Shown in pieces: positions 3,718 through 48,400 of a stretch of DNA of 64,000 nt. Position 1 is the stretch's first letter, and the number at the start of each line of letters is the position of its first letter. Origin of the DNA: Escherichia phage vB-Eco-KMB22. Below the pieces are notes generated by a model. It was given only the letters and a program-made list of their open reading frames with translations. It did not search any database and was not told the origin of the DNA. A program made the position numbers and the translations under genes. Location of the stretch: sequence record OR539217.1. One strand, 5' to 3'.

Positions 3718-3996
3718 TCAAAATGTAATTTCTAACCAATCACCATCACGCTGATCACTATTAACTTTAAAGCTGAATCCTTCTTTTCTCAGCCAATCAC
3801 CAATTTCTTCAGTAATCAATTTATCGCGAGCAGTACAATAATAACTAAAATATGTTTTACCTTGTTCAGCTGCTTTATTAGCAAGTTCTGAAAAATCTTT
3901 AATAAAACACTCTAGCTTAAACTGTTTACTTTTTAATGCTTTTTCACGTAATTGATTAGCAAAAGATTCATTTTCATAAAGATCATACTGTTCCAT
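3718..3996 (-). CDS. hypothetical protein (T4 24.2-position)
   Basis: 92-aa ORF, compact arrangement between rnlB and hoc. Confidence 0.6.
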   Translation of the reverse strand: MEQYDLYENESFANQLREKALKSKQFKLECFIKDFSELANKAAEQGKTYFSYYCTARDKLITEEIGDWLRKEGFSFKVNSDQRDGDWLEITF

Positions 3997-4198
3997 TTTT
4001 CACCTTTTTATTAATATGTCTTTTTCTATAGACAACTTTTTCTCGAGTTTCAAATCTATTCTTAGCAGTCATAGCTCGAGCCCATAATACAGCCACTTCT
4101 TTTGCCTGTAAGTTCAATTCACGAGCAATTTCAATGAATGACTTTCCAGACTCATGAAGCGTAAACACCACAACCTCAGTTCTCATAATCAATCTCAT
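3983..4198 (-). CDS. hypothetical small protein (T4 24.3-position); start codon uncertain
   Basis: 71-aa ORF, no clear SD at first ATG. Confidence 0.45.
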   Translation of the reverse strand: MRLIMRTEVVVFTLHESGKSFIEIARELNLQAKEVAVLWARAMTAKNRFETREKVVYRKRHINKKVKNGTV

Positions 4199-4287
4199 GT
4201 TATCGAGTTGGTGCCATTATATACATCATTTTCTGATTGTGTTTTGTGTGCTTTCAAAATGAAGAAAGGGGCCGAAGCCCCTTATGA

Positions 4288-5418
4288 TTATGGATAGGTA
4301 TAGATGATACCAGTTTCTAAAGCAGTTTTATGAATGATGTATCCATTACGTGATTCTTGAACATCAACTTCTGGATAGTCTTTCATCATCTTCTGAAGAG
4401 TATAACGATGCAGATAGTATTTACTATCTGGGTCTTCAGTTTTCCAATCTTTACCTTCTTCGGTCATTTTTTGGATTTCATCCATAACCCACCAACCGCA
4501 CCAGATGTAAGCTGAAGTACGATGTGGAAGAGGATGAACATAAGGCAATTCACCTTCTGGTTCTGGAGCAACTTTATCAGTTACCTGAACTTGACCTTCT
4601 GCTGTAATAGTTTTGCTATCATAATCAGCAGCAGTAACAGTTGCAGTAACTTCAATAGTTTGACTTCCAATAGATGAGGTATCAACGGTATATACATTAG
4701 TTGACCCTTCTACAGGAGAAGAATCTTTCTTCCATGAGTATTCGATTTGTGCTTCTTCTGGAGCATCAGTGACATTAGCAGTAAATGTAGCCAAAGCATC
4801 TTGTTGAACGTCAATAGAAGGAGGAGTCAATGTAACCTGTGGATTCATTGTCTTCTTATTAACCGTTAATGATACTTCATTCGAAGTAACTTCCTTTGCA
4901 TCATAATCTGCCGCGGTTACTTGAGCCACACACTTAATTGTTTTAACTCCGCTTGCGGTAGGAGTGTAATTGAATGTAGCAGAAGTTGCTTCGCCCACAG
5001 GAGAATCATCTACATACCATTGATAAGTAGCGTTTGCGCCTGATGGCTGCGAAGCTAAAGTAGCGGTAAATTCAACAGCTGTTCCGATTACTCCAGCCGC
5101 AGGACTATCAGGAGTTACTGCCAAGGTAGTCGTCTGAGTCTTGTTTTTGACTGTGATAGTTGTACTAATTTCAGCTGTTTCAGCTTCAGAATCAGGAATA
5201 GTATTTGTTGCAACTACCTTAATAGTCTTTTGACCGGCAGGTCCTTTTAATACATAATCAAAAGTTGCGGCTGATCCTTCTTGGGGAGCATTATTTACAC
5301 TCCATGCATAGGTAATAGTTCCACCTTCAGCCTGACCACTAGGTGCAGCAGTAAACTGTTTGGTTTCATCAATAACCCCTGTTGGTGTTTTAGGAGTTAT
5401 ATCAACTGTAAAAGCCAT
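4288..5418 (-). CDS. hoc: highly immunogenic outer capsid protein Hoc
   Basis: 376 aa, Thr/Ser-rich Ig-like repeats, conserved C-terminal capsid-binding region, position. Confidence 0.9.
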   Translation of the reverse strand: MAFTVDITPKTPTGVIDETKQFTAAPSGQAEGGTITYAWSVNNAPQEGSAATFDYVLKGPAGQKTIKVVATNTIPDSEAETAEISTTITVKNKTQTTTLAVTPDSPAAGVIGTAVEFTATLASQPSGANATYQWYVDDSPVGEATSATFNYTPTASGVKTIKCVAQVTAADYDAKEVTSNEVSLTVNKKTMNPQVTLTPPSIDVQQDALATFTANVTDAPEEAQIEYSWKKDSSPVEGSTNVYTVDTSSIGSQTIEVTATVTAADYDSKTITAEGQVQVTDKVAPEPEGELPYVHPLPHRTSAYIWCGWWVMDEIQKMTEEGKDWKTEDPDSKYYLHRYTLQKMMKDYPEVDVQESRNGYIIHKTALETGIIYTYP

Positions 5419-8815: not shown

Positions 8816-8881
8816 ATTGTTCTCTATTCAATTGTTATTGGATGGACTTAGATTCATTATACCACGTTTATACGTGAAGCA

Positions 8882-27916: not shown

Positions 27917-28251
27917 TTCATAATCACCAGATAAGCAGATTTAGCAGTTTCAACACGATAAATTTCGTGACGAAGTTTAGTTATACTTTTAATAACAGAA
28001 CTAATTATATTCTGCCCATCTTTAAAGCGGTTTTTCTTATCAATAAAAATTGCACCAGCCATCTTTTTGTGAAGCTCAACTGGATATTTCGTCACAATAA
28101 TAGCATCATACACAGAAGGATGAATACTATTCACTAGAGTATCATTCATTAAAGTTATTCTAATGAACTGTGCTGTTTCAGAATCAAGCGCTCTATGATC
28201 GCCAGTATCATTTTCAAGACAATTATCAATTATATCAGTTAAATTCATCAT
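27913..28251 (-). CDS. hypothetical protein (cd.x cluster)
   Basis: 112-aa ORF. Confidence 0.5.
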   Translation of the reverse strand: MMNLTDIIDNCLENDTGDHRALDSETAQFIRITLMNDTLVNSIHPSVYDAIIVTKYPVELHKKMAGAIFIDKKNRFKDGQNIISSVIKSITKLRHEIYRVETAKSAYLVIMK

Positions 28252-38033: not shown

Positions 38034-38890
38034 ATTGCCATTTTCCCTTTAATTGCTGGATGCGATTCATAATTTTCAAGGATAAAATCTTTCGGTTTCA
38101 TGTATTCAGTTAACCAGTAAAGCTGTGTTTCGGTGTCACAATTTCCAAACTCTATAGGCCAATCAATTTTAAGTTCACATAGTTCTTTAGGCTCACGACG
38201 TAAAATTTCTTTACATTGCTCAGTATGATTCATATAGATGTGAGTATTACCACCAGAAAATATCAAATCTCCTGGGATAAGATTACACATCTTAGCCACA
38301 ATATGTGTCAAGGCAGCGTACGAGGCAATGTTGAATGGCAATCCCAAGAAAACATCTACACTTCTTTGGTACCATTGTAAATCAAGATAACCATTACGCA
38401 CATTAAACTGATAGAACATATGACAGGGCGGTAATGCCATTTGATTGATTTCAGCTGGATTCCATGCTGAAACGATTTGACGTCGATCAGTTGGTAATTT
38501 TTTAATACGATCAATAGTTTCAACTAATTGATCCACACCACCGAAATCACGCCATTGTTTACCGTATATAGGACCAAGTTCACCACTATGATATCCTAGG
38601 TCTTTAGCCTGGTTTTCATAGTTATCGTCCCAAATAGTTTTACCTTGAATAAGACTACCATGAGTGCGAAGACGTAAATCATTAACATTGGTAGAACCGG
38701 AAATAAACCATAGAAGCTCAGCAATGCATGCATTCCAGGCGAGCTTCTTAGTTGTTACTGCAGGAAAACCTTTAGTTAAATCCCAACGCAATTTAGTACC
38801 GAACAAAGCAATTGTTCCTGTGCCTGTTCGGTCATCGGTTTCATAACCATTTTCAAAAATGTCTTTAATTAAATCTTGGTATTGTTTCAT
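38030..38890 (-). CDS. td: thymidylate synthase, intron-less
   Basis: 286 aa continuous ORF; catalytic PPCH motif; no group I intron. Confidence 0.95.
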
Positions 38891-38934
38891 TTAGTACCTT
38901 ATATAAATTATAATACATTTTATGAAGCTAATAA

Positions 38935-39282
38935 TCAATACGGTTTAGCATCAAATTTTCTTTCAATTTCAGGCGTAAAATACAATTCTTTACCACGCTT
39001 GGAAAAGCGACCAATAATATGATAATTATTCTCATCAAACGTGATATTGCCGATATCCATAGCTTTCAACCAAATATCGATATTTCTGTCAAGCTTTATA
39101 TCAAAATTCCAATATGGAGAACTATTACCAAAAATACTACAAGCGGATTCAGTGAAACAACTGCTATAAATCTTGTCTTTAGGAACTACTAATTGATAGA
39201 CACCTTTAATAAACTGAGGACCCTGCCATTTTGGTTGTTTCGCGTCTTTTTCTAATAGAATAGGGTAATAATTAAAATTCAT
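38935..39282 (-). CDS. hypothetical protein inserted between frd and td
   Basis: 115-aa ORF, no recognisable motif. Confidence 0.55.
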   Translation of the reverse strand: MNFNYYPILLEKDAKQPKWQGPQFIKGVYQLVVPKDKIYSSCFTESACSIFGNSSPYWNFDIKLDRNIDIWLKAMDIGNITFDENNYHIIGRFSKRGKELYFTPEIERKFDAKPY

Positions 39283-39301
39283 ATTTTCCGCCAGTGTTAT
39301 T

Positions 39302-40128
<827 letters not shown>

Positions 40129-40139
40129 ATTATCTCCTA

Positions 40140-40472
40140 TTAAAAAGGATCAGGAACATATCCGCTAGCTTTAATCATTTTAATTAACGTTAACATTCCT
40201 TTGTTAACTGCTCGTGAGATTTCATCAAAAACTTCATCACTAAAAAGTTCTAACACGCCCTTCTGAACTTTTAATTTACAGCCAACAATTTCTTCATCGC
40301 CTATAGTAAATTCATTACCACCAATTCCACCGAAAAACTTAATTACACCAGTTAACTGTCTTCCACGAGAATATGGGTCGTGTGATAAAGTAATATGAGT
40401 CACCCCGGGTACAGTTTTAAATTGGCAGCGAATATTTACTTGTGAAATTCCAGTTACATGAATGTCAGACAT
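40140..40472 (-). CDS. hypothetical protein (frd.x)
   Basis: 110-aa ORF. Confidence 0.5.
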   Translation of the reverse strand: MSDIHVTGISQVNIRCQFKTVPGVTHITLSHDPYSRGRQLTGVIKFFGGIGGNEFTIGDEEIVGCKLKVQKGVLELFSDEVFDEISRAVNKGMLTLIKMIKASGYVPDPF

Positions 40473-45443: not shown

Positions 45444-48400
45444 ATGGCCGAGATTAAAAGAAAGTTCAGAGCAGAAGACGGTCTGGACGCAGGTGGCGAT
45501 AAAATAATCAACGTAGCTTTAGCTGATCGTACCGTAGGAACTGACGGTGTTAACGTTGATTACTTAATTCAAGAAAACACAGTTCAACAATATGATCCAA
45601 CTCGTGGATATTTAAAAGATTTTGTAATCATTTATGATAACCGCTTTTGGGCTGCTATAAATGATATTCCAAAACCGGCAGGAGCTTTTAATAGCGGGCG
45701 CTGGAGAGCATTACGTACAGACGCAAACTGGATTACGGTTTCATCTGGTTCATATCAATTAAAATCCGGTGAAGCTATTTCGGTTAATACTGCAACTGGA
45801 AATGACATCACGTTTACTTTACCATCTTCTCCAATTGATGGAGATACTATCGTTCTCCAAGATATTGGAGGAAAACCTGGAGTTAACCAAGTTTTAATTG
45901 TAGCTCCAGTGCAAAGTATTGTAAACTTTAGAGGTGAACAGGTACGTTCAGTACTAATGACTCATCCAAAGTCACAGCTAGTTTTAATTTTTAGTAATCG
46001 TCTGTGGCAAATGTATGTAGCTGATTATAGTAGAGAAGCTGTAGTTGTAACACCAGCGAATACTTATCAAGCGCAATCTAATGATTTTATCGTGCGTAGA
46101 TTTACTTCTGCTGCACCAATTAATGTCAAACTTCCAAGATTTGCTAATCATGGCGATATTATTAATTTCGTTGATTTAGATAAACTGAATCCACTTTATC
46201 ATACAATTGTTACTACATACGATGAAACGACTTCAGTACAAGAAGTTGGAACTCATTCCATTGAAGGCCGTACATCGATTGACGGTTTCTTGATGTTTGA
46301 TGATAATGAGAAATTGTGGAGATTGTTTGACGGGGATAGTAAAGCACGTTTACGCATTATAACGACTAATTCTAATATTCGTCCAAACGAAGAAGTTATG
46401 GTATTTGGTGCGAATAACGGAACAACCCAAACAATTGAGCTTCAGCTTCCTACTGATATTTCTGTTGGTGATACTGTTAAAATTTCCATGAATTACATGA
46501 GAAAAGGACAAACAGTTAAAATCAAAGCTGCCGGTGAAGATAAAATTGCTTCTTCAGTTCAATTGCTGCAATTCCCAAAACGCTCAGAATATCCGCCTGA
46601 AGCTGAATGGGTTACAGTCCAAGAATTAGTTTTTAATGGTGAAACTAATTATGTTCCAGTTTTACAGCTCGCTTATATTGAAGATTCTGATGGAAAATAC
46701 TGGGTTGTACAGCAAAATGTTCCAACTGTAGAAAGAGTAGATTCTTTAAATGATTCTACTAGAGCAAGATTAGGCGTAATTGCTTTAGCTACACAAGCTC
46801 AAGCTAATGTCGATTTAGAAAATTCTCCACAAAAAGAATTAGCAATTACTCCAGAAACGTTAGCTAATCGTACTGCTACAGAAACTCGCAGAGGTATTGC
46901 AAGAATAGCAACTACCGCTCAAGTAAATCAGAACACCACATTCTCTTTTGCAGATGACCTTATCATTACTCCTAAAAAGCTGAATGAAAGAACTGCTACA
47001 GAAACTCGTAGAGGTGTTGCTGAAATTGCTACGCAGCAAGAAACTAATACAGGTACTGATGATACTACAATCATCACTCCTAAAAAGCTTCAAGCTCGCC
47101 AAGGTTCTGAATCATTATCTGGTATTGTAACTTTTGTATCTACTGCAGGTGCTACTCCAGCTTCTAGTCGTGAATTAAATGGTACGAATGTTTATAATAA
47201 AAACACTAATAATTTAGTTGTTTCACCTAAAGCTTTGGATCAGTATAAAGCTACTCCAACACAGCAAGGTGCAGTAATTTTAGCAGTTGAAAGTGAAGTA
47301 ATTGCTGGACAAAGTCAGGAAGGATGGGCAAATGCTGTTGTAACGCCAGAAACGTTACATAAAAAGACATCAACTGATGGAAGAATTGGTTTAATTGAAA
47401 TTGCTACACAAAGTGAAGTTAATACAGGAACTGATTATACTCGTGCAGTCACTCCTAAAACTTTAAATGACCGTAGAGCAACTGAAAGTTTAAGTGGTAT
47501 AGCTGAAATTGCTACACAAGTTGAATTCGACGCAGGCGTCGACGATACTCGTATCTCTACACCATTAAAAATTAAAACTAGATTTAATAGTACTGATCGT
47601 ACTTCTGTTGTTGCTCTATCTGGATTAGTTGAATCAGGAACTCTCTGGGACCATTATACCCTTAATATTCTTGAAGCAAATGAGACACAGCGTGGTACAC
47701 TTCGTGTAGCTACACAGGTTGAAGCTGCTGCAGGAACATTAGATAATGTTTTAATAACTCCTAAAAAGCTTTTAGGTACTAAATCTACCGAATCGCAAGA
47801 AGGTGTTATTAAAGTTGCAACTCAGTCTGAAACTGTGACTGGAACATCAGCAAATACTGCTGTATCTCCAAAAAATTTAAAATGGATTGTGCAGAGTGAA
47901 CCTACCTGGGCAGCTACTACTGCGATAAGAGGTTTTGTTAAAACTTCATCTGGTTCAATTACATTCGTTGGTAATGATACAGTCGGTTCTACCCAAGATT
48001 TAGAACTGTATGAGAAAAATAGCTATGCGGTATCACCATATGAATTAAACCGTGTATTAGCAAATTATTTGCCGTTAAAAGCAAAAGCTGTAGATAGTAA
48101 TTTATTGGATGGTCTAGATTCATCTCAGTTCATTCGTAGGGACATTGCGCAGACAGTTAATGGTTCACTAACCTTAACCCAACAAACGAATCTGAGTGCC
48201 CCTCTTGTATCATCTAGTACTGCTGCGTTTGGTGGTTCAGTTTCGGCAAATAGTACATTAACTATTTCTAATACTGGAACGGCAACTCGTCTGATTTTTG
48301 AGAAAGGACCTCAAACTGGAACTAACCCAGCGCAGACGATGACTATCAGAGTTTGGGGAAATCAGTTTGGTGGTGGATCAGATACAACACGTTCTACTGT

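Follow-up and report, generated by a model that had tools for sequence, protein, structure and literature searches.

Gene X of the frd–td junction: a widespread accessory gene of T-even phages with a predicted beta-barrel product

The frd–td junction of phage vB-Eco-KMB22

The DNA analyzed here, called 'the window' below, is a stretch of 64,000 nucleotides from Escherichia phage vB-Eco-KMB22 (OR539217.1). On its minus strand the genes for dihydrofolate reductase (frd) and thymidylate synthase (td) are separated by a third, small gene, which we refer to as X. X has the orientation of the early nucleotide-precursor genes and is tightly packed among them. The preliminary description of this DNA had placed a 115-aa open reading frame with short spacers of its own between frd and td, and this is what the locus contains, the spacers being 19 nt and 44 nt long. 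The features are, in the order in which they are transcribed:

39302..39883, minus strand: frd (dihydrofolate reductase), 193 aa, stop codon TGA at 39304-39302; Pfam DHFR_1, 6e-19
39294..39308, minus strand: upstream repeat copy, TAAATGAAATAACAC, comprising the frd stop and a relic of the td start (ATG AAA TAA)
39283..39301, minus strand: spacer between frd stop and X start, 19 nt, with a weak Shine-Dalgarno-like GGCGGA inside
38935..39282, minus strand: gene X, 115 aa, ATG at 39282-39280 and TGA at 38937-38935
38891..38934, minus strand: spacer between X and td, 44 nt
38901..38930, minus strand: Tequatrovirus-specific part of that spacer, 30 nt, TAGCTTCATAAAATGTATTATAATTTATAT, absent from Mosigvirus SF and KMB38
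38928-38923 and 38912-38907, minus strand: promoter-like elements in the 30-nt segment, a MotA-box-like GCTTCA and a -10-like TATAAT, respectively
38879..38893, minus strand: downstream repeat copy, TAAATGAAACAATAC, which holds the functional td start codon
38030..38890, minus strand: td (thymidylate synthase), 286 aa, intronless; Pfam Thymidylat_synt, 7e-96

The open frame of frd reaches 39910 (39302..39910); the start equivalent to that of T4 lies at 39883, and the T4 and window proteins are 97% identical in amino acid sequence. The td start codon (38890-38888) is preceded by a Shine-Dalgarno AAGG at 38900-38897. In T4 (NC_000866), frd occupies 145109-145690 and td ends at 145112, so that the two genes share a 4-nt ATGA overlap, with the sequence TATAAATGAAACAATACC. 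Coordinates and sequence thus agree with the overlap that the preliminary description had given for T4.

Two variations in the neighborhood of frd may be mentioned here. Between frd.1 and frd the window has two further small genes on the minus strand. The gene at 39883-40128 encodes 81 aa (PHROG 3183), and that at 40140-40472 encodes 110 aa (DUF7247 according to the annotation of related contigs). By tblastn, neither has a counterpart in the T4 or RB69 loci, and the corresponding position in T4 is a gap of only 71 nt; the 81-aa gene is found in T2 and T6. In some phages that carry X, frd itself encodes 204-205 aa instead of 193: it reads past the usual stop into the start of X and overlaps it by 11 nt. 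This longer frd occurs in RB14 (L041, 2671-3285), in L042 and L043 (2397-3011) and in KMB38 (L037, 1842-2459), where it is apparently caused by a 2-nt insertion within a TATAAATGA motif.

X is a genuine gene under strongly purifying selection. Between the window and T2 it has accumulated 18 synonymous differences and no non-synonymous ones (dS 0.36). Among eight sequences compared, omega is mostly 0-0.06, and higher only for near-identical pairs with very few changes; it remains near 0 with dS of up to 0.99 within the Tequatrovirus/Mosigvirus set. The absence of a domain match and of a known function might suggest a chance open frame or a decaying pseudogene. Such a reading is contradicted by the near-zero omega at these distances, by the retention of homologs across sequence divergence of at least 70%, and by a confident fold prediction (discussed later). 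An open frame of 115 codons would arise by chance with a probability of about 2e-4 at the base composition of the window, but the 18 synonymous and 0 non-synonymous differences from T2 are the more decisive reason for regarding X as more than a chance frame. The substitution pattern rules the chance-frame or pseudogene reading out, at a probability that we put next to nil. The identical protein is indexed in 637 blocks of a public assembly collection, and lies between frd and td in all six of the places listed. The exact protein has also been recorded on one contig of 489,447 bp, far exceeding the size of a T4-like genome; this is probably a concatemer or a chimeric assembly.

Distribution of X and the other occupants of the slot

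X is a catalogued accessory gene of T-even phages, and not a new insertion. It matches the phrog_1928 HMM (E = 8.4e-36) over essentially its full length, residues 4-111 aligning with positions 2-125 of a profile of 126. The GenBank record of RB14 calls it 'RB32ORF229c hypothetical protein' and remarks that it is 'flanked by 9 bp repeat'. T2, T6 and RB14 have it at the frd–td junction; of the three classical T-even phages, T4 alone lacks it. The protein of the window is 100% identical to those of T2 and RB27, and the RB32ORF229c/PHROG 1928 proteins of T2, T6, RB14, RB27 and other Tequatrovirus members represent the same gene, in the same position and with the same 9-bp repeat; we find no difference between them and X of the window. 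The family has neither a Pfam model nor a solved structure. Source records name X 'hypothetical protein', except those of the BASEL phages, which name it 'putative homing endonuclease'. The preliminary description had allowed that the frame might prove to be a widely conserved, already annotated gene of known function; it is widely conserved and annotated (RB14, PHROG 1928), as a protein without assigned function. Literature searches on X, its accessions, RB32ORF229c and T2/T6-versus-T4 phenotypes yielded no functional study.

DNA of X is present in ~364 records, compared with ~687 that match the surrounding 2-kb frd–td region (~53%); these junction-state counts are approximate, being taken from search summaries and ignoring kinship among genomes. 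By tblastn, X-like coding sequence is found in 620 records, in 258 of them at less than 60% identity. These 258 are from T4-like phages that infect Klebsiella, Enterobacter, Salmonella, Citrobacter and other bacteria. Homologs with 25-46% identity to X, often in tandem pairs, directly follow frd in at least eight other lineages. In these lineages the adjoining frd is itself just 42-53% identical to that of the window. In every locus that was fetched (Kanagawavirus L004, Jiaodavirus L005, Gelderlandvirus L006, 14 IMG/VR contigs of 158-176 kb, and two Logan contigs), the X homolog lies ahead of td, its start coinciding with the frd stop or being only a few bases away from it. Start and stop codons overlap at the borders of the X homologs in most genera. 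Since X occurs in T2, in T6 and in ~53% of records, and diverged homologs occur in other lineages, the empty junction of T4 and RB69 is the minority state.

Most of these other lineages carry a second ORF, Xb, between X and td. A profile built from X alone matches it at 1e-9 to 1e-20, and it too falls in phrog_1928 (E = 8e-36); on these two grounds, Xb is a tandem paralog of X. It differs by an insertion of ~20 residues following a QKKW motif. Examples of the tandem arrangement, and of its reversal, are:

L019 and L020, 4001-4300 and 4380-4667: tandem X paralogs
L014, 3559-3993 followed by 3986-4297: reversed order, with the Xb-like gene (144 aa) first and X (103 aa) second

The slot can also be occupied by a gene unrelated to X. 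This gene, Y, encodes 68 aa (MSNKLKVKDVP..., PHROG 9550); it overlaps both neighbors, its start sharing bases with the frd stop (ATGA) and its stop with the td start (TAATGA). Y is the sole occupant in L030-L032 (~4079-4285) and in L028 (893-1100), where it is frameshifted, and it is a third gene, between Xb and td, in L011, L012 and L022. By tblastn, Y is found in 238 phage records, ~135 of them close relatives (phages of E. coli, Shigella and Yersinia). Matches at 40-43% identity also occur in E. coli phages of ~150 kb (e.g. ESCO13 and nepoznato), as against ~160-175 kb for T4-like genomes. Finally, T4, RB69, L029 and L033-36 have nothing in the slot and show the ATGA overlap. The frd–td junction is, then, a polymorphic slot that contains X, X and its paralog (with or without a third gene), the 68-aa gene, or nothing. 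The comparison of synteny across T4-like genomes that the preliminary description had proposed thus yields several states, and its view of the junction as a site for accessory cargo is borne out by the alternative occupants.

The X family is confined to the Tevenvirinae, and always lies immediately downstream of frd. A HMMER search of 1.84 billion representative proteins gave 22 clusters and no convincing relatives beyond small proteins: 20 of the 22 are proteins of ~100-116 aa, and the other two (321 and 380 aa) are weak matches in multiple stretches. A profile search revealed no second copy of X elsewhere in the 64-kb window, and none in the T4 or RB69 loci.

Borders, origin and exchange of the cassette

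When T4, T2 and the window are aligned, a clean indel of 411 nt stands out. It is the discrete Tequatrovirus cassette that carries X, and it has a direct repeat of the td start at both ends. The preliminary description had called the frame 'extra', which is a T4-centered statement, X being present in T2, T6 and about half of the records. The two copies of the repeat are identical in their first 9 nt (TAAATGAAA) and agree at 13 of 15 positions overall; those parts of the repeat that are free of coding constraint match with p ~1e-4. RB69, and several other lineages without X, have an overlap sequence, TATAAATGAAACAATACC, identical to that of T4.

The relic td start and the RB69 junction point to insertion of X into an ancestral overlap junction in Tequatrovirus. 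Conversely, X could be ancestral in Tequatrovirus, and a deletion between the 9-bp repeats could have produced the T4-type ATGA junction. The arrangement with X seems old, as many genera have homologs in this slot, and deletion could plausibly act on a direct repeat of 9 bp. Against this, the overlap is identical in RB69 and several other lineages, X has a lower dS than its neighbors, and in Tequatrovirus with X a decayed td start comes after the frd stop (ATGAAATAACAC versus ATGAAACAATAC), which is expected from insertion with target duplication and is unlikely to be there by chance (p ~1e-4). We consider a deletion origin possible, and its probability fairly low. An insertion may also have been followed by precise loss by way of the repeat. 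Insertion and deletion at this junction may both be recurrent.

Comparison with Mosigvirus indicates that X has been exchanged laterally. Mosigvirus SF and KMB38 carry X, with 94% amino acid identity. SF has no 19-nt spacer, the start of X instead overlapping the stop of frd (ATGA), and X ends only 15 nt short of td; compared with Mosigvirus, the cassette of Tequatrovirus is longer by 26 nt on the upstream side and by 30 nt on the downstream side. The synonymous divergence of the two genera, Tequatrovirus and Mosigvirus, varies along the locus:

X (versus SF): dS 0.53
td (versus SF): dS 1.2
frd (versus SF): dS 2.0
nrdA (versus RB69): dS 2.8

SF, which has X, and RB69, which does not, have nearly identical flanks (dS 0.15). 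Exchange of X is indicated by these two observations, the lower dS of X compared with its flanks and the difference between SF and RB69 in X despite like flanks. The closest X proteins outside Tequatrovirus and Mosigvirus (63-66% identity) adjoin an frd only 49% identical to that of the window, which likewise argues for exchange between genera.

The td gene is variable in its own right. Its alleles are strongly mosaic: td of the window and of T2 are 86% identical in amino acid sequence, with a dS of 1.2, and frd, nrdA.1, nrdA.2 and nrdA of the same two phages are 95-100% identical. Identity to T4 is 91% in exon 1 and 73% in exon 2. The gene is intronless in the window; in T4 and T6 it is split by the I-TevI intron. 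A search with a chimeric query of X and the T4 td intron returned 79 records with both, T6 among them, and so ruled out that X and the intron are mutually exclusive. Roughly 285 records had X only, 159 the intron only and 164 neither, according to search summaries that take no account of kinship; X and the intron show an apparent negative association in these counts, to which the same limit applies.

The 30-nt segment that distinguishes the Tequatrovirus X–td spacer contains the promoter-like elements listed above, and may be a putative td promoter, supplying td with one of its own once coupling to frd had been broken. The spacing between GCTTCA and TATAAT, 10 or 12 nt, is atypical, the clearest sites of the window having 13 nt. 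A search of the X–td spacer for terminator-like sites gave none. The pattern GCTTYA-N9-13-TANNNT occurs 28 times in the whole window, versus 11.3 expected, and no shuffle reached 28 (e.g. 8856-8880, 28004-28028 and 47653-47677, minus strand). These 28 sites are consistent with middle promoters of the T4 type throughout the window.

The predicted protein and its possible roles

The product of X is mildly basic and has a mass of ~13 kDa; for the family as a whole, the median pI is 8.6. As the preliminary description had said, it has no recognizable motif: neither X nor its relatives gave a domain match in Pfam, NCBIfam or a PDB sequence search, made with the single sequence and with two profiles. 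The structure prediction that the same description had suggested proved informative. An AlphaFold2 model based on an alignment of 22 sequences has a pLDDT of 92.1 and a pTM of 0.84, and supersedes an earlier model from 4 sequences (pLDDT 61). It contains strands at residues 6-12, 27-34, 62-64, 80-82, 86-96 (or 80-96 as a single strand) and 99-104 and a helix at 68-76. The order b1-b2-b3-helix-b4-b5 fits that of the OB-fold, as judged by secondary structure. X is predicted, with high confidence, to be a small beta-barrel with an OB-like order of strands. Foldseek found no significant match to the model among the solved structures of the PDB, OB domains included; among viral models, the only matches are uncharacterized proteins of T4-like phages, some of them from Aeromonas phages. 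Among the closest known proteins are OB-fold binding domains (HIN, RPA/Teb1, the RecO N-terminal domain, S1/cold-shock), to which X has no significant structural similarity.

Across 29 family members, X and Xb together, residues Q16, W19, G27, G91, K95 and G97 are invariant, and L9, Y29 and F93 are nearly so. No Asp, Glu, His or Cys is invariant in this set. The predicted barrel, conserved residues that include no acidic, His or Cys residue, and a basic pI argue for a binding protein rather than an enzyme.

These properties bear directly on the name given to X in the BASEL records, according to which it would be a free-standing homing endonuclease or another selfish mobile gene. Some of what has been described is in keeping with this: X is sporadic between two conserved genes (~364 of ~687 records; present in SF, absent from RB69), it forms a discrete cassette flanked by repeats, and it has been transferred between genera. 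T4 genes of the seg and mob kinds, such as MobE and SegG, resemble it in being small, in being present or absent between conserved genes of nucleotide metabolism, in moving between related phages, and in having expression signals of their own. They differ from X in that X has no nuclease motif or fold, experiences very strong purifying selection, and possesses tandem paralogs as well as ancient homologs in synteny. Neither X nor 22 members of its family match GIY-YIG, HNH, LAGLIDADG or PD-(D/E)xK models in Pfam at E <= 1, and NCBIfam gives no match for X. None of the acidic, His or Cys residues is invariant in the family, the confidently predicted structure is a beta-barrel, the fold matches listed include no homing endonuclease, and X, at 115 aa, is smaller even than T4 MobE (141 aa). 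The methods of the BASEL paper describe annotation by comparative genomics, and no domain evidence for putative homing endonucleases (PMC8594841). A published tally of homing-endonuclease genes gives one for T2 (HNH class) and two for RB14, both seg-like GIY-YIG (PMC2993671); X, which both phages carry and which has neither motif, was therefore not counted. We reject the endonuclease reading, which has become highly improbable, for want of a nuclease motif in the sequence and of a nuclease fold in the model. The label 'putative homing endonuclease' is unsupported.

The reading that we favor, with some reserve, is that X is an accessory gene of T-even phages, borne in a slot, exchanged laterally, and coding for a non-catalytic binding factor. 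X would be transcribed early together with the nucleotide-precursor genes, and its product would work not as a catalyst but through binding to a protein or nucleic acid partner. With low confidence, we would further suggest that it is a conditionally useful accessory or host-interaction factor. Because T4 and RB69 do without it, X is dispensable for phage growth and for the core Td/Frd pathway.

What the partner might be is a more tentative matter. It could be a factor of the host or a component of its defenses, in which case X would have an accessory or counter-defense role; we regard this as possible. Arms-race genes do not usually show purifying selection as strong as this, which counts against an accessory or host-interaction role, as does strict adjacency to frd and td with overlapping codons, which could mean a role in thymidylate and folate metabolism. 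X might, then, be a non-catalytic subunit or regulator of the phage's thymidylate/folate module: an adaptor for Td, Frd or the dNTP-synthesis complex, or an OB-like binder of frd–td mRNA. X and its paralog occur only between frd and td, across lineages whose frd genes are 42-53% identical to that of the window; the frequent overlaps of start and stop codons imply translational coupling; selection on X is strongly purifying; and the protein has a mildly basic character and conserves aromatic and Lys residues. Other observations speak against such a role. T4 and RB69 have the frd–td overlap in place of X, X can be present or absent in near-identical genomes (SF versus RB69), the slot may hold the unrelated 68-aa gene instead, and X occurs alongside several divergent alleles of td and frd. 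Gene order is generally conserved among T4-like phages, moreover, so that adjacency alone is a weak argument. We judge a subunit or regulator of this kind rather unlikely, and the broader proposal, that X modulates the phage's own Td/Frd module or its mRNA, has in our view a similarly small chance of being right.

Small anti-defense proteins of T-even phages that vary between lineages offer a comparison, for example TadIV-1 of T4, which resembles X in its size (~100 aa), in having no recognized domain, in its restriction to enterobacterial Straboviridae, and in being variable among T2, T4 and T6 (PMC13243611). X is unlike TadIV-1 in that the two have no relation in sequence or fold and have opposite distributions, X being present in T2 and T6 and not in T4. 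That PHROG 1928, X and its paralog together, might represent a new and structurally unprecedented class of phage host-interaction or counter-defense proteins, being a small barrel without a solved relative in a cargo slot within the nucleotide-precursor operon, strikes us as improbable.

For a T-even genome X is an ordinary finding, and the repeat that flanks it had already been noticed by the GenBank annotators of RB14. The analysis corrects a T4-centered view, nonetheless: the 'extra ORF' is an artifact of taking T4 as the reference, and the junction may be empty or contain one of two or more unrelated small genes. X loses a 'homing endonuclease' label that had no support, and hundreds of 'hypothetical protein' entries, together with tandem paralogs in other genera, are joined into one family with a confident predicted fold. 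Being strongly constrained and yet dispensable (T4 lacks it), X is a clean candidate for work on function, and two of the three classical T-even phages have it, both readily crossed and engineered. If the counter-defense proposal were true, X, being carried by T2 and T6 and not by T4, could explain some of the differences between T2 or T6 and T4 in sensitivity to bacterial immune systems, for example to those that act on nucleotide pools.
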